IMG/VR virus record: IMGVR_UViG_3300027007_000029
Coordinates: 1 to 49,576 of that record
DNA: 49,576 bases
Origin: a virus
Taxonomy: Duplodnaviria; Caudoviricetes
Strand: one strand, 5' to 3'
The notes beneath the pieces were generated by a model that ran no database searches, was not told the DNA's origin, and saw only the letters and a list, made by a program, of their open reading frames with translations. A program made the translations under genes and the position numbers. Position 1 is the stretch's first letter, and each line of letters opens with the position of its first letter. Positions 19,152-46,196 of the stretch are shown here, piece after piece.

Positions 19152-20120
19152 TCAGCGGTTGTGGATTTCTTGAAGGATCGTTTCTTCGCCCACCGCGTCG
19201 ATCATCTCGCTCGTCAGCGGCGAGTCGGCGTTGTCAGCCGTCTCGTAGAGCTGGTCGAGGATCGTCGCGTCGTCCTCCACGCCGAAGGTAGCCATCGCAC
19301 GGATGAATCCATCGACGGGGCCGGGGAGCGCGTCAGCGGTAGGCTCAGCGGCTTCCGCCGTGGTCGCCGTCACGGTTGCCCCACCGTCGGTCTCGACGCC
19401 GGGGGTCTGCTGGACGGGAGCGCCCACCGAGTTGTCCATCACGACCTGCGCTCCGGTAACGAGGTCGATCAGAACCGGATAGTGGAAGTCGTACTTGTCG
19501 CCCTCACGAATCTGCTTGAAGTACGCCACGTCCACCCCTTCGAGTTCTTCCCGAAGGGTGAGCGGGGTCGAAATCCAGTCCGTCAGCGTGTCCTCTTGGA
19601 GAACCGCCGCCTCGCCATGTTCGCTCAGGAGCTTCACGAGGCGCTTTGCCGACGAACTCGGCTTCTTCGCACCCTGTTCCCACATAATGATGTTGCCCAC
19701 CTCGTAGGCATCGTCAGACTCGACAAACTCGCCGTCGACGTAGACAGCGGTGGAGTCCGGTTCACCCGAGATCGGGTCGGACGACAGCGCCGCCGCAACA
19801 GGAGCGTAGTGGTACGTCTCGCGGAAGCTCTCGGAGTGACGCTCCGGAGCATCGAGCACGCCGAAGTCCTCGCCGTCGAGGAAGCCGAGCGCGTTCCACG
19901 AGAACAGCTTTACCTTTCCGGGCTTATCCTTCCGCTCCATCAGAACGCCATCCACGAGGGTTACGTCGTCCATCACGAAGCCGACGGACTGCCCGCCAGC
20001 GTTCCCGACCACCAGCCGCCCGACGTATCCACGGATCGTCGTCTCGGGGGTGATCGAGAAGTTAATGTCGTTGTATTCGTTGTCGTTACCACTCTGGCCG
20101 CCAAAGTTGTATTTGGACAT
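19152..20120 (-). CDS. Acidic protein, possibly ssDNA-binding; first gene of the replication operon
   Basis: 322 aa, beta-rich and acidic; function inferred only from position. Confidence 0.6.
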   Translation of the reverse strand: MSKYNFGGQSGNDNEYNDINFSITPETTIRGYVGRLVVGNAGGQSVGFVMDDVTLVDGVLMERKDKPGKVKLFSWNALGFLDGEDFGVLDAPERHSESFRETYHYAPVAAALSSDPISGEPDSTAVYVDGEFVESDDAYEVGNIIMWEQGAKKPSSSAKRLVKLLSEHGEAAVLQEDTLTDWISTPLTLREELEGVDVAYFKQIREGDKYDFHYPVLIDLVTGAQVVMDNSVGAPVQQTPGVETDGGATVTATTAEAAEPTADALPGPVDGFIRAMATFGVEDDATILDQLYETADNADSPLTSEMIDAVGEETILQEIHNR

Positions 20121-20271
20121 TGTTGTGTGATCTCCTATCGGAGAGAAGACGCCGCCAAAGAACGGCGGCTGAGAGAGACGGGCGTGGTCAGCGCCCGCAG
20201 AGTCGAGAAAGAACCGCAGACCGCAGACACAGAACGTAAAAACCGAGTCAACGCCCCCGTGGAGGGGGCAG

Positions 20272-20318
20272 AGCTACCCCGAGGAATCGAACCTCGGGTG
20301 GGGGAACCACCCGTAGCT
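20272..20318 (-). ncRNA. tRNA-like element A
   Basis: AGCTAC/GTAGCT stem, inner GGGTGG/CCACCC hairpin, CGAGG-TTCGATT-CCTCG T-arm; followed by a GCCCCC/GGGGGC hairpin (20253-20269). Confidence 0.65.
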
Positions 20319-20391
20319 ACCGAAGAACTATGCACAACCAAGAGCGGTCAATGAGCAATACTACTCGTCAGCGTTACGTGTCTCAGAACCC

Positions 20392-20446
20392 CGAAGCCCC
20401 GGAGGAATCGAACCTCCTTTCAGCACCAGCGGCGGATACGGCTTCG
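20392..20446 (-). ncRNA. tRNA-like element B
   Basis: CGAAGCC/GGCTTCG stem plus GGAGG-TTCGATT-CCTCC T-arm. Confidence 0.65.
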
Positions 20447-20558
20447 AGTGTTATTGGGGAAAGTTGAATTGGGGGTCAGGTTGGAGCGTGCGCCTGTGAT
20501 CGCACGTACCGACCGAACGGTGGACACCGAGGAGAAGTGACAACCTCGCGTCCACAGG

Positions 20559-20607
20559 GGCAAACGCTGGAGTCGAACCAGTCAGAGCGCCAAGTCGCTC
20601 CGCCGCC
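20559..20607 (-). ncRNA. tRNA-like element C
   Basis: GGCGGCG/CGTTTGCC stem, GAGCG/CGCTC hairpin, CTGG-TTCGACT-CCAG T-arm. Confidence 0.6.
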
Positions 20608-20630
20608 TTTTTGTCCTCACTATACTATTC

Positions 20631-20650
20631 GTTGGAAACATCTTAAAGAT
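20631..20650 (-). promoter_or_regulatory. Leftward promoter of the replication operon
   Basis: TTTAAG TATA box followed by TTCCAAC; same layout at 32661-32678. Confidence 0.6.
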
Positions 20651-20744
20651 TCCTCAAATCTGTCCGTCTGAGGAAACGGGAGTAGCATACTGCCCGCACC
20701 TTTATCCACTTCTGAAAGTGATTGGTAGCGTGGTATGCGGGTAA

Positions 20745-21836: not shown

Positions 21837-22105
21837 TGGTTGTCGTAACCATTTGAAGGGGGATATTTGTATCTTCATTGCTGTCTGTGCTACTATGATT
21901 CTCTCAGACGGACGAATTTTAGATAGCTTTATACAGTCTTAGAGCGTCTATTAGGTAGAGAACAACCGTGAGAGGGTTCTCTGTCTGATACCTCTGGTAG
22001 TAATCTATTCGTTAGACTACTCTCTCTAAGACTACTACCTATACTACTCTCAGTAGACTACACTCTAAGGAGACTACTCTCTAAGCAGACTACATTGGAG
22101 GAGAC

Positions 22106-22144
22106 ACCTTCCGCCCTATTACAGGAGGAGAGTAATCTCCTATA
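22106..22144 (+). repeat. 39-bp dispersed repeat, copy 1
   Basis: ACCTTCCGCCCTATTACAGGAGGAGAGTA[A/T]TCTCCTATA; 38/39 identical to 29481-29519. Confidence 0.9.
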
Positions 22145-23620: not shown

Positions 23621-24862
23621 CTACTCAGCGTCGCCTTCCTCCATCGCCATCAGCAGGTTGTTAATGCGGTCCTCGCGGGCCTCGAACTCGGCCTTACGCT
23701 CGCGGAGGCTCTGGCTGTACCGTTCGACGGTCGCCAGCCCGCGTTTCTGGTTGAACGACAGTTCGCCCCCGTTCCGGACTTCAGCACGGCGACGCTCGCG
23801 CCGTTCGTACTCTGCCTCAATGACTTCCATCGTCTCGGCAGGGTTGTCGAGAATCCTCCGGGCCGTGAAGTAGTAGTCTTCGAGCTGGCCGTCCTCGGAC
23901 TTCCCGCGGAACGAGTGAGTCAGCGCGTAGGTCAGCCCGGAGTGAAGCACCCACTTATTCAGCCGGTTGCGAGACCCATCCTCGGTCTGCCCGCGAGCCT
24001 TCGCGTCCTGGGCCGCCGCGTTTGCCAGATACTCGGGAAGACCGAGTAACTGGTAATACTCGGAGACAGAGTACGGAAGCTCAGCGAAGTTCATCTCGAT
24101 TTCGAGGGCTTCGCTGATTAGCTCAAGCAGGTAGTCGCGGATCGCGCCCATCTGATCGAGCAGGTCCATAATCCAGCCGTGGTACTCCGAGGGCTTGCCG
24201 ACGTGTCGCCGGCTCATCTTTTCGGTCAGCGCCCGGAAGCTGTTATCGCATTGCGTGTCGTAGGCGAAGCCCCGAGCGTACAGCGACATTGAGCCGTCGA
24301 AGCTGTTGCCCGTCTGAATCCCCACGTAGAGCGGCTGGCGGCCTCCCGGCGGGTACACCAGCTCGTCGGTGAGGTAAATGTCGCCGTGGACCTTCCGCCC
24401 GTAGTCGTAGACACGGAACTCCCCGATAATCGCGTCGTTGAGATCAGCGTCCTCGAAGGCGTCGGCCCACGGAGACCACGCCTCAACGGGATTGATGATG
24501 GTGTACCGCTCACTCGATACGGCATACACCATCGCGTCGCCGTTCTCAACGTCTCCCGCCGTGAACGCCTCAGCGAGTTCCGGGTTGACGACCGCGTTCG
24601 CCGTGCTGATCGGGATGTTGTGTTCACGACCGGGGTTGAACGGGTTTGCCACCTCGATCTCGCTCGTGGTAGCCGTCGGGAGCTGGCGGATCGCGTCTGA
24701 GAAGGACAGCTCCGGGCGGTCGGTGAGATCGAGCTTCCCGAGGATGCTCTCGGGCATCTCCATCTGGAAGTTGTCGAAGGCCGTCACACCTGCGAAGGGG
24801 ATCGTGTAGTGTTCGTTCAGCGTTACACCGGCATCGCTCTCTGCGTCGTTGTGGTCACTCAT
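23621..24862 (-). CDS. DUF932-family phage/plasmid protein
   Basis: VSSERYTIINP, NSFDGS, QCDN; start moved to MSDHN, just downstream of CCTGAACCC. Confidence 0.75.
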   Translation of the reverse strand: MSDHNDAESDAGVTLNEHYTIPFAGVTAFDNFQMEMPESILGKLDLTDRPELSFSDAIRQLPTATTSEIEVANPFNPGREHNIPISTANAVVNPELAEAFTAGDVENGDAMVYAVSSERYTIINPVEAWSPWADAFEDADLNDAIIGEFRVYDYGRKVHGDIYLTDELVYPPGGRQPLYVGIQTGNSFDGSMSLYARGFAYDTQCDNSFRALTEKMSRRHVGKPSEYHGWIMDLLDQMGAIRDYLLELISEALEIEMNFAELPYSVSEYYQLLGLPEYLANAAAQDAKARGQTEDGSRNRLNKWVLHSGLTYALTHSFRGKSEDGQLEDYYFTARRILDNPAETMEVIEAEYERRERRRAEVRNGGELSFNQKRGLATVERYSQSLRERKAEFEAREDRINNLLMAMEEGDAE

Positions 24863-24902
24863 AGTTGGTTTCGGGTTCAGGTTCCCCCTACCGTCGGGGG
24901 AA

Positions 24903-24945
24903 AGCGTCGCCGGGGAGTTGCACCCCGAAACCGCTACTCGACGCT
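24903..24945 (-). ncRNA. tRNA-like element D
   Basis: AGCGTCG/CGACGCT stem, CGGGG-TGCAACT-CCCCG arm, then TTCCCCC/GGGGGAA hairpin and CCTGAACCC. Confidence 0.65.
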
Positions 24946-25039
24946 CAGCTACACAGCGCCCATCCACATCGGCAGTAAACGCACCCGCCTTCAGGGATCA
25001 GATGGGGATTCCTACACGACGGACACCGCTCAGGGATTC

Positions 25040-25795: not shown

Positions 25796-25929
25796 CGCGC
25801 CCTCCGCCCGCTCCCGTGATTCCGCGAGATTCGGAGCGCCGAGTGGTAGCGAGACGGCCAGTATTGGGTCGGGTAGAGGTTCTTCAGCGTGCTGTTCGTC
25901 ACCGATTGGTAGTTGGTCATTTTCCGCAT
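25792..25929 (-). CDS. 45-aa basic peptide (not in ORF track)
   Basis: ATG directly follows CCTGAACCCT; ATGA coupling to the next gene. Confidence 0.5.
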   Translation of the reverse strand: MRKMTNYQSVTNSTLKNLYPTQYWPSRYHSALRISRNHGSGRRAR

Positions 25930-25961: not shown

Positions 25962-26004
25962 ATCCGATTCGGGGAGTCGAACCCCGAGGTCGCCACTATC
26001 GGAT
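25962..26004 (-). ncRNA. tRNA-like element E
   Basis: ATCCGAT/ATCGGAT stem, CGGGG-TTCGACT-CCCCG arm, GCCCC/GGGGC hairpin, CCTGAACCC, ATG. Confidence 0.7.
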
Positions 26005-27710: not shown

Positions 27711-27752
27711 ATCGAGGCCGGGGCGCGACTCCCGGCGGTTACGCTACTCGAT
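27711..27752 (-). ncRNA. tRNA-like element I (variant loop)
   Basis: ATCGAG/CTCGAT stem, GCCGGG-AGTCGCGC-CCCGGC arm, TTCCCC/GGGGAA hairpin. Confidence 0.45.
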
Positions 27753-27771
27753 ACCGCCTCGAATTAGTCGC

Positions 27772-29100
27772 TTAGTCCCACCGTCGAACGCCGCCCTGCC
27801 GTTCCAGCGACGCGACTTCCCGACCGTGGGTAACGACGCGGTGCCACCGCTCGCGGAGGTTAATCATCGGGTGGTCGCCCCCGGTGTGGCGAACCGTACC
27901 CCGGATGTAGCCGCCGACCACGGTCTCACCATCGTCGTCGTAGATCGGAGCGAAGTCACGCGGAACGTGCCGCCCCAGGAGCGCCGACGCCGGGCTGTGA
28001 TTGAAGCCAAACGAGAGCGGGAGAATCCGCCCGTCAAAGTAGGTCACGCCGGTATCGGTGTCTCGAATCCCGAGGCCCGCCCCAACCTTCGTCGGCTCGT
28101 AGTTGCCCGCCGGGAAGCTCGCCGGGGCCTGTTCCACGTCGTCGACGGTCTCGGTGAGAACGCCCTTAGAGAGCGGCTTGAAGATAGGGACGTCTTCTGG
28201 CTCGAAATCCTCGTCCATCGGAATGAAGAACCACTCGCCCTGCCGGATAATTTGGTTGCCCCGGCGGAGCGCCCACAGCGATGGGCGACCTTCGTAGACA
28301 CTCATCCCCTCGGCCTCGGCTTCGCGCACTTCCGCTGGAGTCAGCAGATCGAGCGCATCATCCATCACGCGAATATTCTCCATTTCCTCGGGTTCGAGGC
28401 GGAAGGCGAACCGCCCGGTGTTTTCGCGGGTCACGTTCGCCGTCTTATCCCGACCGACGACGTAGCCGAAGCCCTGGGAAAACTCGACGAGCTTCACGCC
28501 GCTTCCCGCTCGAATCCCGACAATATCTTCGAGGCGTTCGCCGCGCTGGAGGAACCCATCGAGCGAGGTGAGCGGAAGTTCGCCGTGCGCTCGGGGAGCT
28601 GGCGACACGTAGGAGTAGAATCCCACCGCCCAATCCTCGTCGTTGTTAATCACGAGACCGTTGTGGGTGCGAATCGCCGCAATCGTCCGGTGGTGCATCA
28701 GCCGCCCGGAGCCGTCGACGTTCTGCCGCCCGGTCATCGACTGCCCAGAGTTCCACATCGCCGCGTTGTCGCCCCTCGTCATTTCGTGGGCCGGGAATTG
28801 CATATCGCGCCACGCCTTCGCCACGTCGGTCTGGCTGGAGTGAACCGCCTTCCCGGTCACTTCGTAGTCGGGGTGAATCAGCTTCCATCCGTAGGCCGTC
28901 TTTGCCCACTTGCGGTCGGGCTGAATGTCATCGAGCAGGGCGATTGCGTCGCCAATTCCCTCGGGAAGTTCGGCGGCGTAGAAGGCTTCGAGGTCTTCAG
29001 CAGTCGGAAGTTCGAGGCCGGAGAGATCGAGACGGATTTCCACGTCGTTGTTGGTCTGATTGTTGTCGTTGCCGTAGCTACCGCTGGTCTGGTCGTACAT
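27772..29100 (-). CDS. Viral hypothetical protein (RQGEWFF motif)
   Basis: 442 aa, acidic; preceded by element F and CCTGAACC. Confidence 0.75.
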   Translation of the reverse strand: MYDQTSGSYGNDNNQTNNDVEIRLDLSGLELPTAEDLEAFYAAELPEGIGDAIALLDDIQPDRKWAKTAYGWKLIHPDYEVTGKAVHSSQTDVAKAWRDMQFPAHEMTRGDNAAMWNSGQSMTGRQNVDGSGRLMHHRTIAAIRTHNGLVINNDEDWAVGFYSYVSPAPRAHGELPLTSLDGFLQRGERLEDIVGIRAGSGVKLVEFSQGFGYVVGRDKTANVTRENTGRFAFRLEPEEMENIRVMDDALDLLTPAEVREAEAEGMSVYEGRPSLWALRRGNQIIRQGEWFFIPMDEDFEPEDVPIFKPLSKGVLTETVDDVEQAPASFPAGNYEPTKVGAGLGIRDTDTGVTYFDGRILPLSFGFNHSPASALLGRHVPRDFAPIYDDDGETVVGGYIRGTVRHTGGDHPMINLRERWHRVVTHGREVASLERQGGVRRWD

Positions 29101-29183: not shown

Positions 29184-29224
29184 GCGTCGTCGGGGAGTCG
29201 AACCCCTGTATTTCCACTCGACGC
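29184..29224 (-). ncRNA. tRNA-like element F
   Basis: GCGTCG/CGACGC stem, GGGG-TTCGACT-CCCC arm, TCCCCC/GGGGGA hairpin. Confidence 0.7.
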
Positions 29225-29425: not shown

Positions 29426-29480
29426 CTTAGGATTCTCTATCAGTAGGAGACTCTAATGAGGAGACTCCGTGGTAGGAGAG

Positions 29481-29519
29481 ACCTTCCGCCCTATTACAGG
29501 AGGAGAGTATTCTCCTATA
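29481..29519 (+). repeat. 39-bp dispersed repeat, copy 2
   Basis: 38/39 identical to 22106-22144. Confidence 0.9.
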
Positions 29520-30357: not shown

Positions 30358-30738
30358 TCAGTAGTCGTCGAACAGCTCGAAGTCCTCGATCTCCTCGGAG
30401 TCCTGAATTTCCTCAACGTGGAGGCCGATTTCAACCTCGGGGAAATCCATCAGGCCGACAGAGCCGTGAACAAACGAGGCGTCGGTCACGATCTCCTCGA
30501 TTGAGAGACCCTGATCTCGGAGGTACGCGATTGTCCCCGGCAATTCACAGTCCGGTAGGCCGTCGACGCCGAAGGATTCAGCCCAATTCGAGGCGTCGTA
30601 TTCCAGAACGCGCCGGGCAAATTCGGAATCGGTAGCCACCAGCTCGAAGAAGTCGCGGGCGGTGAGCGTCCCGCCGAAGATTTCAGAGGAGTATTCAGCC
30701 GTCGGTTCCACAGGTTCGGTGGTAGGCTCGGTTGCCAT
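30358..30738 (-). CDS. Very acidic hypothetical protein
   Basis: 126 aa, D/E-rich; follows element G. Confidence 0.7.
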   Translation of the reverse strand: MATEPTTEPVEPTAEYSSEIFGGTLTARDFFELVATDSEFARRVLEYDASNWAESFGVDGLPDCELPGTIAYLRDQGLSIEEIVTDASFVHGSVGLMDFPEVEIGLHVEEIQDSEEIEDFELFDDY

Positions 30739-30767
30739 CTTCTATTCCTTCCCCCATTTGGGGGAGG

Positions 30768-30828
30768 CCCCGCGGCGGGAGTCGAACCCGCCGAGTTACA
30801 ACCGGCTCCTGATATTTCGGAACCGGGG
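30768..30828 (-). ncRNA. tRNA-like element G
   Basis: GGCGGG-TTCGACT-CCCGCC arm inside CCCCG/CGGGG, then TCCCCC/GGGGGA hairpin. Confidence 0.6.
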
Positions 30829-31177: not shown

Positions 31178-31987
31178 TTATTCGAGGTTCTTCAGGGCTT
31201 CAGCGGCCATCTTGATCGCTTCGGCGGCGGCGCTGATCGCCTCGGCCTTCGCCATTTCGGCGTCGGTGGTTCCGGTGGTCGTGTCGGTCGTCTTGGGTTC
31301 AGAGGTAGGTTCGGGTTCCGGTTCCGGCTCAGGTTCCGCGAACATCATTTCGTCGGTCTCGATTTCGGCCTGCTGTTGGTGGCGGAGGCAGAAGCCGTGG
31401 TCTTTGGCTTCGGCGGTGCAGGGTGCGCCGGCCTTCTTGCCTGATAGGTACAAGCCGTTGCAGGTGTCGGCGGGTTCCGGTTCGGGTTCGGCGACGGGTT
31501 CCGCCGGAGTTTCACCGAGGATTTCGTCTTTCAGGAGCTTTGGCAGTTTGAAGTCAGCCCCGACGAACAGCCGGTCGGAGTATTGATCCGTGATTCCGAG
31601 CGCCCTGATTTCGTCGTCGGTGATTTCGCGGGCTTTGATCGTCGTCGGGACGGGGTGGGCCAACTTGTAGGTCCGAAGGTCACCCTGATTCAGCGCCCTG
31701 AAGTCGTCTTGGATTTCGCGCTTTGCCCGCCGGGTTCGCATCGCCAGCCGTCCGACTTGCTGTTTCGCGCCCTTTCCGTCGACCGACTTCGCCAGCCGGT
31801 TTAGGAGCCACTCAGTACCGCACACGACATTGTATGCGTCGCCAGCCGAGACAGGTTCGGGGAATTTGGCCCGAGCGTTTTTGAGCTGGATTTCTTCGCG
31901 GGTTTGTTCGTCGTGGATGGTCGGGGAAGTCGCGGGTTCGGTGTTCTCAGGTGATTCAACAGCCAGCAGGGTGTCGTATTTGCTCAT
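31178..31987 (-). CDS. First early gene: protein with a CCCH zinc finger and PE-rich linkers
   Basis: CNG...GAPC...FCLRH; start moved to MSKYD because the longer frame runs through element H. Confidence 0.7.
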   Translation of the reverse strand: MSKYDTLLAVESPENTEPATSPTIHDEQTREEIQLKNARAKFPEPVSAGDAYNVVCGTEWLLNRLAKSVDGKGAKQQVGRLAMRTRRAKREIQDDFRALNQGDLRTYKLAHPVPTTIKAREITDDEIRALGITDQYSDRLFVGADFKLPKLLKDEILGETPAEPVAEPEPEPADTCNGLYLSGKKAGAPCTAEAKDHGFCLRHQQQAEIETDEMMFAEPEPEPEPEPTSEPKTTDTTTGTTDAEMAKAEAISAAAEAIKMAAEALKNLE

Positions 31988-32052
31988 AGCAGTCACTTTT
32001 GGGTGGTCGTTCGGTCGGTACGTCGGTCGTTTCCCCTGATTTTTCGGGGAAG

Positions 32053-32094
32053 GCCCGCCGGGGGAATTGAACCCCCGCAAGTCCAAACGCGGGC
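32053..32094 (-). ncRNA. tRNA-like element H
   Basis: GCCCGC/GCGGGC stem, CGGGGG-TTCAATT-CCCCCG arm, TTCCCC/GGGGAA hairpin. Confidence 0.7.
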
Positions 32095-32660
32095 TTATCC
32101 AGCCAGTCTCGAATTGGGATATGTGGTCGTCAAAGGCATATCCCACCGGGGCGCGGCGCTTTGATTATAGCGGTTCGCTAATCGCGGGTTTAGCTTCGCG
32201 TTAGGCTTTACGTCGCGTGGTACACTTCCCGTCGCCCGTTCGACTTCCCCGGTTTCTACCCGGTTTCACGTCGCGGCGCTTTTTGGGAATCACTCACGCG
32301 CCCGGTGGTCGATCCCACCGTCGCCCGTCCTAATGCTGATTTAACTCACTTCCGGGGGCTTTGTATCGCCCGTCCGGTCGCAAGAAATCGCCCGCTTTGG
32401 CGTATGTAGGCTCGGCGTATTCCAGCCGTTTTGTCCCTGAAATCCCCGACGCCCGTTGCGCCGATCCTTTCAGGCTTACTTCCCCGCCCGTCCTACGCGG
32501 GGGTTTTCTTTGGGGGGCTTTTCACCCCAAAGGTCACTCCGATTTGCCCGGTCGTCGTCGGGGGTGCCACCCCCGCCCGAGTTTCCCGAGCAACCGTTCT
32601 CCCGCGGGGGCCTCGTCCGGTAAAGTCAACCGTTGCCCCCGAGGGGATAGCTGAACAGAT

Positions 32661-39265: not shown

Positions 39266-39393
39266 AAGCGCCCGTGATGGGGCGTTGACTCGGTTACGAA
39301 AGGGGGAAGGAACGACGAGTGACCAAACCCGTCGACCTATTCCCTGAACCCTAAGACGAAACCCGCGACCAACGGGATCGCCTACCCCGAGAT

Positions 39394-45245: not shown

Positions 45246-46196
45246 ATGGCATTTTACCGCGAGATTACGACGAAGGACGACGTACCGCTCAGCACCCTCC
45301 TGCTCGAAGCTGTCACCGAGCTGGAACTGTTCAACGAAGCCCCCCGAATCATCCGTGAGACGCTGACGCAGACTGTCAACGAGCAGACGTTCCGCGTCTA
45401 CACGGGCGATATGACGTGGGAGGAGCTGGCTGAGGGCGAGCACGCTCGGACGGGCACGATGGACTCGACCGAGATGGCCTTCAGCGTGAAGACCTACGGG
45501 CGCTCGCTCGGCTACACGCAGGAGTTCATCGAGGACAACGAGGCTGACCTGATCCGCCGGCATTTCTCGAAGATGGTCGAGGGTGCGCTGGAGAAGGAGC
45601 ACGAGGTCGTCTTCGACGTTATCCGCAACGGCTGGGCCAACGGCTCTAACCTCTGGTTCAACCCCGAGGACTTCGGGGACTACACCTTCGACAAGACCCA
45701 CGACCACAGCTTCGCGGATACGCAGGAGCTTTTCGAGCGCAATGGTGCCACCGACACCAACGCGCACACCCCGTCTGAGCACCTGATGGAGCTCAAGGCT
45801 GAGCTCGAACACCACGGCAAAGTCGCTGACATTGCGGTGATCGGCTTCGACTTCGCCCGCGAGCTTCTGAAAGAGCTCTCCTGGGGCGCACAATACAACA
45901 TCCCCACCTTCGAGTCCCTCCGAGAAATGGGCTACCCCGACTCTGGCATCGTTCTCGACGGGATGCGTGTCGTTCGCTCGGCGTACCTTCCCGGTATGGA
46001 AGCCCACGTCGTCGCGGCGGCGGAGCGCCCGATCTACTTCCACGAGCGCCGTGCGGTCCAGCTCACGCAGGGCCAGAACGGTGGGCCGATTGGCGACCCC
46101 GGACAGCTCATTGGGAGCTACGGCTCGGCTCGCTACGGTGCGGTCTGTGTCGATCCGCTGGCAGGCGCGAAGTGCGTCGCTGACAACCTCGCATAA
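45246..46196 (+). CDS. Major capsid protein (HK97 fold)
   Basis: LAEGE, VKTYGRSLGYTQEFIEDN, ARYGAVCVDP; position. Confidence 0.85.
   Translation: MAFYREITTKDDVPLSTLLLEAVTELELFNEAPRIIRETLTQTVNEQTFRVYTGDMTWEELAEGEHARTGTMDSTEMAFSVKTYGRSLGYTQEFIEDNEADLIRRHFSKMVEGALEKEHEVVFDVIRNGWANGSNLWFNPEDFGDYTFDKTHDHSFADTQELFERNGATDTNAHTPSEHLMELKAELEHHGKVADIAVIGFDFARELLKELSWGAQYNIPTFESLREMGYPDSGIVLDGMRVVRSAYLPGMEAHVVAAAERPIYFHERRAVQLTQGQNGGPIGDPGQLIGSYGSARYGAVCVDPLAGAKCVADNLA

Follow-up and report, generated by a model that had tools for sequence, protein, structure and literature searches.

Between a promoter near 20.64 kb and the first gene of a replication module, the 49,576-nucleotide stretch of viral DNA analysed here (the window) carries a non-coding leader, presumably transcribed leftward (20121-20630, minus strand), in which three tRNA-like elements, C, B and A, are separated by two unique spacers. 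What does such an arrangement do for the virus, and does either spacer act as an antisense RNA on an early gene of the same genome? An earlier note had answered with a tRNA-punctuated array, from which the replication operon releases antisense RNAs that shut off the earliest genes. Our best reading, held with slightly better than even confidence, is that of one processed antisense RNA, the spacer between C and B (spacer 1), working like the phage P1 C4 RNA on the leader of gene 31178-31987. Spacer 1 is the only regulator that we propose.

The genes of the window include those for an integrase, a family B polymerase, a Cas4-like nuclease, a terminase, a portal, a capsid and tail tube proteins. 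The first gene of the replication module (19152-20120, minus strand) encodes a protein of 322 aa, a homolog of HF2 HrrHF2_270, which has no match in Pfam, NCBIfam or the PDB. Homologs were found in 53 phage records, all of them haloviruses, at 27-30% identity, and the gene order at this position is the same as in HF2, HRTV-25, HRTV-27 and HSTV-2. The same protein is also encoded on contigs of 133 and 122 kb, so that the window appears to be a piece of a larger HF2-like genome; these contigs exceed the isolates of the Hafunaviridae (57-78 kb), and the synteny with the four viruses named above goes along with a protein identity of just 26-40%. By its gene content and order, the window is part of an HF2-like halovirus genome.

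The promoter of the replication module (20620-20648, minus strand), with a TATA box at 20642-20647 and a predicted start near 20620, is assigned from its motifs to the type of the HF2 class I repeat IR3. The site around 20645 shares the TATA box and the start motif with IR3, displays the beta and gamma motifs at a spacing of 20-21 nt and has replication genes behind it, as class I repeats do; 44 of 46 positions are the same in a relative (L044). The IRs of HF2 are tested promoters, and IR3 drives an 18-kb transcript that includes PolB (PMC8707807). A sigma-70 promoter scan was set aside, since it does not apply to archaeal promoters. Two pairs of repeats at promoter-like sites are probable class I-type regulatory repeats: a 61-nt direct repeat (22084-22144 and 29459-29519, 89%) and a 44-nt inverted repeat (20644-20687 and 21888-21931, 73%).

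By analogy with HF2, the minus-strand genes from 31987 downward would constitute the early and middle arm. The putative target (31178-31987, minus strand), which encodes a protein of 269 aa with a DUF5763 domain, is the first minus-strand gene past the divergence point and, judged solely from this position, is likely the first early gene, as it had been called. Its relatives measure 267-271 aa and share the start methionine. A search for the function of this protein and of the 19152-20120 protein found none for either. The direction of the genes and the promoter motifs indicate that the array and the target leader are probably both transcribed, from the minus strand.

All three elements past the 20.64 kb promoter fold as an acceptor stem plus a T-arm, in agreement with their earlier description as t-elements. 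Element C (20559-20604, minus strand) comprises an acceptor-like stem, an inner hairpin and a 4-bp T stem with its T loop; element B (20390-20448, minus strand) a 9-bp acceptor-like stem, a 22-nt linker and a T-arm; and element A (20272-20318, minus strand) an acceptor-like stem, a linker and a T-arm, followed by a GC hairpin. C and B share 44 of 46 and 55 of 59 positions, respectively, with L044. The elements display the structure of a t-element, an acceptor-like stem stacked on a T-arm with a 7-nt T loop, C having a T stem of only 4 bp, and most copies leave 1-2 unpaired nt at the junction between acceptor stem and T-arm. The sequence common to C, B and A is the T-arm core only. They are not tRNA genes: D and anticodon arms are absent, and the linkers measure 16-22 nt versus 41-43 nt in true tRNAs. 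ARAGORN and Rfam (at E up to 1) reported no tRNA or family in the window.

The same design recurs outside the array. A detector that requires an acceptor stem and a T-arm gave 10 matches in the window, compared with 0.68 matches per strand in 100 shuffles; two of the 10 lie in coding DNA, and eight are intergenic and on the coding strand, namely C, B, A and five elements before early genes. One of the five (32053-32094, minus strand) is located in the leader of gene 31178-31987, is followed by a hairpin at 32031-32051 and is kept in L048, the contig that carries the target leader of the relative. The other four, all on the minus strand and found by the detector as well as by a model of such elements, precede gene 30358-30738 (30766-30824), gene 27772-29100 (29184-29224), the ATG at 25920 (25962-26004) and the ATG at 24862 (24902-24946). 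A possible further mini-tRNA with a non-standard T loop (about 27715-27765, minus strand) was spotted by eye and missed by both detectors.

In an alignment of 20 early elements the T stem is 99% paired and the acceptor stem 71% (the alignment of its 5' side is imperfect); both partners vary in 10 of the 11 pairs, a result whose shuffle control is inflated by related rows. The model, which was built from the early elements, recovers A (E 0.007), an element left out of its construction, and also detects the first elements in two more distant relatives, L046 and L047, as well as elements in HF2 and HRTV-8; it misses elements B and C. The design, usually with a hairpin directly behind it, is also present in the early regions of HRTV-27 (six elements), HSTV-2 (three) and HRTV-25 (two). 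The elements are tRNA-derived mini-structures and belong to a wider family with covarying stems that spans four isolated Hafunaviridae genera. A 17-nt repeat located after element A (20241-20257) and after the small terminase gene (39279-39295), comprising a hairpin and then a shared tail, is a possible terminator or processing motif. It was rejected as an antisense pair: given the direction of the genes both copies are transcribed in the same sense, and they diverge independently in the relative.

The origin of the array is suggested by the corresponding loci of related viruses. The order in HF2 is IR3, tRNA-Asn, a tRNA-Tyr-like gene and the homolog of 19152-20120. In L046 (38% protein identity) a mini-element, a long tRNA-like RNA and a full tRNA-Asn precede the homologous gene, and in L047 (34% protein identity) the place of this tRNA-Asn is taken by a shrunken element that shares its 5' acceptor strand. 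At the IR2 locus, Serpecor1 and HRTV-8 carry a tRNA-Arg with a 28-nt deletion (PMC7230728). From these loci and the truncated tRNA-Arg, the array is best read as a reduced tRNA cluster located at the tRNA-cluster site of HF2. The long tRNA-like RNA, comprised of a T-arm and an extended hairpin that replaces the D and anticodon arms, is conserved (L046 305-377, L002 16163-16243, L003 14028-14107 and, in HF2, L098 about 19660-19735) and has no Rfam match in L046. In L046 (116-127/541-552) and L002 (15713-15724/16273-16284), 12 nt at the 5' end of the leader are complementary to a stretch past the last element, possibly a stem that closes the whole RNA cluster.

Full tRNAs and longer tRNA-like RNAs at the same locus in relatives, together with the 93-96% identity of C and B in the relative, would also fit an explanation in which the tRNA-like elements are themselves the product, as decoys or mimics binding or titrating host tRNA enzymes or anti-viral tRNA nucleases, with the spacers as by-products. 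We regard this as very unlikely, as the elements, whose linkers span 11-26 nt, have neither D nor anticodon arms, their copies differ in sequence, and the spacers of L046 and L047 are more alike than their elements. Moreover, the same elements stand singly before early genes with a hairpin behind each, which fits cutting signals.

Spacer 1 (20449-20558, minus strand), the candidate antisense RNA, is 110 nt long and consists of a hairpin, a G/U-rich stretch, a second hairpin and a pyrimidine tail. Its complementarity to the target leader proved to be as the earlier note had described it. Block 1 (20504-20519, minus strand), a 16-mer, is the exact reverse complement of 32008-32023 (minus strand), located at -36 to -21 from the ATG in a predicted single-stranded, A/C-rich leader with an opening cost of 2.8 kcal/mol. 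The second, co-linear block of 7 nt (20535-20541, minus strand) occupies the 11-nt loop of the predicted hairpin 1 (20521-20555) and is complementary to 31992-31998 (minus strand), a purine-rich run 4 nt before the ATG at 31987 that may be the ribosome-binding site; the leader of HF2's first gene contains the same 7 nt. The gaps between the blocks measure 15 nt in the spacer and 9 nt in the leader.

That a lone 16-mer can be a chance match had been conceded from the outset, and rightly: the window holds five inverted exact matches of at least 16 nt, where Markov simulations (three orders, 40 runs each) averaged 1.35-1.78, so that one 16-mer alone means little. For a sharper comparison, 67 start regions (-60 to +20) were hand-picked from the ORF list and shuffles were made dinucleotide-preserving. 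A match of at least 16 nt to these regions arose in 3 of 5000 shuffles of the array and in 2 of 20000 of the spacer, figures that are post hoc and come after the screening of very many DNA stretches, and the two-block score of 23 exceeds the maximum of 18 in 400 shuffles, in a test devised after the match was known. By these post hoc shuffles the complementarity to a translation start region is beyond chance; the energy tests are weaker.

These numbers have to be set against the most serious of the alternatives, in which the elements are processing and stabilising signals surviving from the tRNA cluster, spacer 1, a conserved and structured RNA, has another target or none, and the match results from a G/U-rich sequence meeting an A/C-rich leader motif common to the whole family. 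The five inverted 16-mers are in its favour. So is the leader motif itself: an A/C-rich motif like the target, near-identical in HRTV-8 and L047, is found before their HrrHF2_270 homologs too, and composition thus inflates matches. The 2 in 20000 shuffled spacers argue against it, since these shuffles keep the composition.

Three further observations concern leader sequences of the window. At 46181-46192 (plus strand), 12 nt at -22 to -11 of gene 46203, behind the capsid gene, are complementary to spacer 1, which is within the chance range. Upstream of element 32053 lies a hairpin-rich, non-coding leader of about 550 nt (32100-32645, minus strand), likely a structured RNA, which is 88.5% identical in L048 versus 68% at four-fold sites of the gene behind it. 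Finally, the 7-mer CTGAACC stands shortly before the ATG of many minus-strand genes (18 sites in the window) as a private leader motif, of which the 49.6 kb contain no non-coding antisense copy.

Binding energies were compared in several ways. In an accessibility-aware scan the target leader is the best minus-strand match of spacer 1 in the window (-15.1 kcal/mol), three sites scoring better (two on the plus strand and one antisense); block 1 is partly paired inside spacer 1, with an opening cost of 16 kcal/mol. By cofolding, the target leader comes first among the 67 start regions at -18.1 kcal/mol, which is no outlier next to 28 shuffled spacers (mean best -21.6 kcal/mol), and the spacer of the relative ranks the target leader fifth among the 67 start regions of the window. 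In a uniform test, which pairs the first 200 nt after a promoter with the start regions, the target leader is first of 66, ahead by 0.9 kcal/mol, which does not surpass the top scores of HRTV-25 and HRTV-27, two viruses for which this test gave no outstanding target; none of 140 shuffles binds the leader of the window as well, nor do any of 156 for the leader of the relative. Plain RNAduplex with 70-nt windows did not discriminate: the target came 14th when the core was used, and with the whole spacer it was not among the first 15. Given these mixed results, energy neither proves nor excludes the pairing of spacer 1 with the leader. The unexceptional cofolding energy and the lack of a target in HRTV-25 and HRTV-27 are both what a match born of composition would predict.

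A relative with 88% protein identity carries the array on contig L044 and the target leader on L048. Run X11 joins the two, with no differences to L044 over 601 nt at a depth of 36.5 and with the leader changes of L048 at a depth of 37.1, and run X5 contains the same two alleles. Between the window and the relative, four-fold degenerate sites of three replication genes are 80-86% identical, C, B, A and both hairpins of spacer 1 are 90-100% identical (the hairpins 95-100%), and the tail of spacer 1 is 69% identical. Within block 1, the spacer of the relative has one additional base and its target one base less at the same position of the duplex, which would give 8+7 bp with a 2-nt bulge and so a weaker block 1; block 2 is extended from 7 to 9 bp. 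Several indels are present between and after the two blocks in the relative's leader.

The compensatory changes that the earlier note had proposed to look for in related viruses were sought in L044 and L048 and did not appear as substitutions; the pairing is kept via coincident indels. The relative, with its small numbers, is an example of retained predicted pairing and not of compensation. The absence of a compensatory substitution fits a fortuitous match, whereas the preservation of two co-linear blocks amid the indels of the leader argues against one. Among the differences listed for a third spacer haplotype (run X7) is the replacement of an A-U pair by G-C in hairpin 1; this haplotype retains the loop block, and of the 16 nt of block 1 it shares 12. 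A search for further relatives found none in genome contigs and none in three scans of viral contigs; two more scans of viral contigs gave 45 unrelated stretches and 4 stretches, and another scan gave 39 stretches, few of them haloviral.

The relative also bears on the explanation that the 16-mer is a DNA site, an operator or an inversion site, with one copy at each of two control regions, in opposite orientations. Both copies are non-coding and downstream of promoters, and the viral genome has an integrase and a zinc-finger gene beside the promoter. The copies of the relative, however, differ in their central spacing (2 nt versus 0 nt) and the blocks are 15 nt apart on one side and 9 nt on the other, and such unequal spacing suits an RNA duplex and not a site for a protein or a recombinase. 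The predicted start sites precede the copies by about 100 and 600 nt, and no joints were found in four runs, all of which makes a DNA site the least probable of the explanations considered here.

The second spacer does not share the properties of the first. Spacer 2 (20319-20389, minus strand; about 70 nt) is weakly structured and poorly conserved, with 47 of 74 alignment columns (64%) identical in L044, below the 80-86% of four-fold sites. Its best match, at start codon 29100 of gene 27772-29100 (-17.3 kcal/mol), is lost in the relative. Spacer 2 was therefore rejected as a second guide, a role that we consider quite unlikely, and its poor conservation leaves a multi-guide array unsupported. 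Nor does the locus resemble a CRISPR-like multi-guide array, the repeats being non-identical and the target of spacer 2 not conserved. That spacer 2, too, matches a start codon and that this match fails in the relative is a further point for composition as the source of the match of spacer 1. Hence the plural in the proposed antisense RNAs is not supported; the tRNA-punctuated antisense array retains its tRNA-derived elements, a conserved C-B spacer whose two blocks are kept in the relative, and a parallel in the anti-leader RNA of HSTV-2, HRTV-7 and HCTV-6.

In HSTV-2, past the equivalent promoter, which stands beside the divergent CxxC gene, lies an unannotated RNA (L093 18365-18560) composed of a hairpin, a single-stranded stretch and a hairpin plus T-run. 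Of 66 start regions, 10 contain a complement of 9-17 nt to its 28-nt open stretch, in most cases immediately ahead of the ATG, and none of 2000 shuffles reaches eight start regions; the next 15 nt complement the leader of gene 67. HRTV-7 and HCTV-6 contain the same stretch and a matching leader motif, and the RNA is also present in L100 and L101. This predicted anti-leader RNA, in a cultured virus, is a stronger case than that of the window. It has no flanking mini-tRNAs and no significant sequence similarity to spacer 1, so that the analogy is one of position. Indeed, homology of spacer 1 with the leader RNAs of HF2, HSTV-2, L046 and L047 was tried and rejected as not significant, 48 to 927 of 1000 shuffles scoring as high.

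The IR2 leaders of haloferacalesviruses (11 loci) share a conserved hairpin, a G/U-rich stretch and a hairpin; in HF2 (L098 18412-18508) and 10 relatives this conserved RNA of about 90 nt precedes tRNA-Arg, and its G/U-rich part can pair over the start codons of the first gene and of HrrHF2_035. When the start regions of HF2 were used for all 11 loci (their identity having been checked for the first one of HRTV-8 only), nine of the 11 leader RNAs, pairing in two registers, placed the start of the first HF2 gene among the best four of 50, the exceptions being L024 and Serpecor1 (19th and 18th). In the uniform test, HF2's first gene is outside HF2's top 7 of 50. Covariation of the IR2 leader RNA with the leader that precedes the HrrHF2_270 homolog was also rejected: cognate pairs averaged -18.6, and permutations of nine distinct pairs -17.7 +/- 0.9 (p 0.16). 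What links the lineages is position and layout.

The unmistakable anti-leader stretch at the equivalent place in Mincapvirus argues against explaining the match of spacer 1 by composition and leftover tRNA signals. Weighing this with the shuffles and the two retained blocks on one side and the points in its favour given above on the other, we hold that explanation to be unlikely, while still the one to be taken most seriously besides the C4-like antisense RNA.

Under the C4-like reading, host tRNase Z would cut 3' of element C and RNase P 5' of element B, as in the Haloferax t-element work, to give the 110-nt spacer 1 with a 5' hairpin, and a cut 3' of element 32053-32094 would leave a target mRNA that begins with a hairpin and has its leader open. 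Block 2, in the loop of hairpin 1, would cover the ribosome-binding region and block 1 would add specificity upstream, like the loops b' and a' of C4, and pairing would stop translation of the 269-aa early protein. To judge from the timing in HF2, this middle-phase RNA could switch the early gene off once the replication module is on.

The C4 RNA of P1 and P7 is phage-encoded, is cut from a larger transcript by host RNase P and acts in trans on a phage mRNA, to which one block pairs over the ribosome-binding site and a second block farther upstream (PMC5320573). According to the available part of that account, C4 is itself a three-stem substrate of RNase P and serves lysogeny and immunity; the regulator proposed here, by contrast, is the spacer between two mini-tRNAs, in an archaeal virus, and likely serves the early-to-middle switch. 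The covariance model of the C4 Rfam family gave no match in the window at E up to 1; spacer 1 may work like C4 without membership in the family.

RNase P and tRNase Z excise an RNA placed between t-elements in Haloferax (PMC4326828, PMC4946936). The 5S rRNA t-element of Haloferax volcanii and the engineered t-element/crRNA/t-element cassette likewise place tRNA-like elements beside an RNA, but as described in these sources they are host-borne or engineered, whereas the array is natural and viral, has three elements and has counterparts before mRNAs; the likeness is drawn from the descriptions, and cleavage at the viral elements is predicted. The HF2 IR3 locus, with its tRNA-Asn and tRNA-Tyr-like genes, has the same place, promoter type and downstream genes (PMC8707807). 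The available portions of the HF1-group papers leave the tRNA-like sequences at uncertain function and describe neither a mini-tRNA family nor a trans antisense spacer (PMC8707807, PMC7230728). Antisense control of early or replication transcripts is also known from haloarchaeal viruses in the Tant RNA of phiH1 and the antisense RNAs of HFTV1 (PMC8707807, PMC12542753); in the parts of these reports at hand they are cis counter-transcripts, whereas the present candidate is trans-encoded, 11.5 kb away, with short partial pairing. The TMERs of MHV68 are viral tRNA-like elements from which a tRNase Z cut frees downstream regulatory RNAs, and they differ, as far as the accessible text goes, in being eukaryotic, made by RNA polymerase III, and directed through the Dicer/miRNA pathway at host targets (PMC6667617). 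The literature searched, which comprised few subscription papers and some sources in part only, contained no viral t-elements and no trans anti-leader RNA in haloviruses (including PMC8651126, PMC3950731 and PMC3432209).

If correct, the proposal would give the Haloferax cassette a natural viral counterpart, an RNA cassette flanked by t-elements, together with an antisense regulator that an archaeal virus encodes in trans, and would provide a concrete early-gene off-switch for lytic archaeal viruses. It would also account for the odd tRNA-like sequences annotated in HF1-group genomes. Only as a tentative generalization, which we would put clearly below even, might host tRNA enzymes run the early-to-middle switch of HF1-like haloviruses at large, with mini-tRNAs cutting early messages into units whose leaders are open and a decayed tRNA cluster, at the head of the replication module, freeing an anti-leader RNA whose target varies by lineage (a single gene in the window, some ten in Mincapvirus). 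Equivalent leader RNAs and mini-tRNAs occur in viruses available in culture, namely HSTV-2, HRTV-7 and HF2, and Haloferax reporters exist. In the window, the 8-mer GGCGGAAG and its complement recur throughout in many chance-looking repeats, and HSTV-2 has an analogous repeated 9-10-mer.
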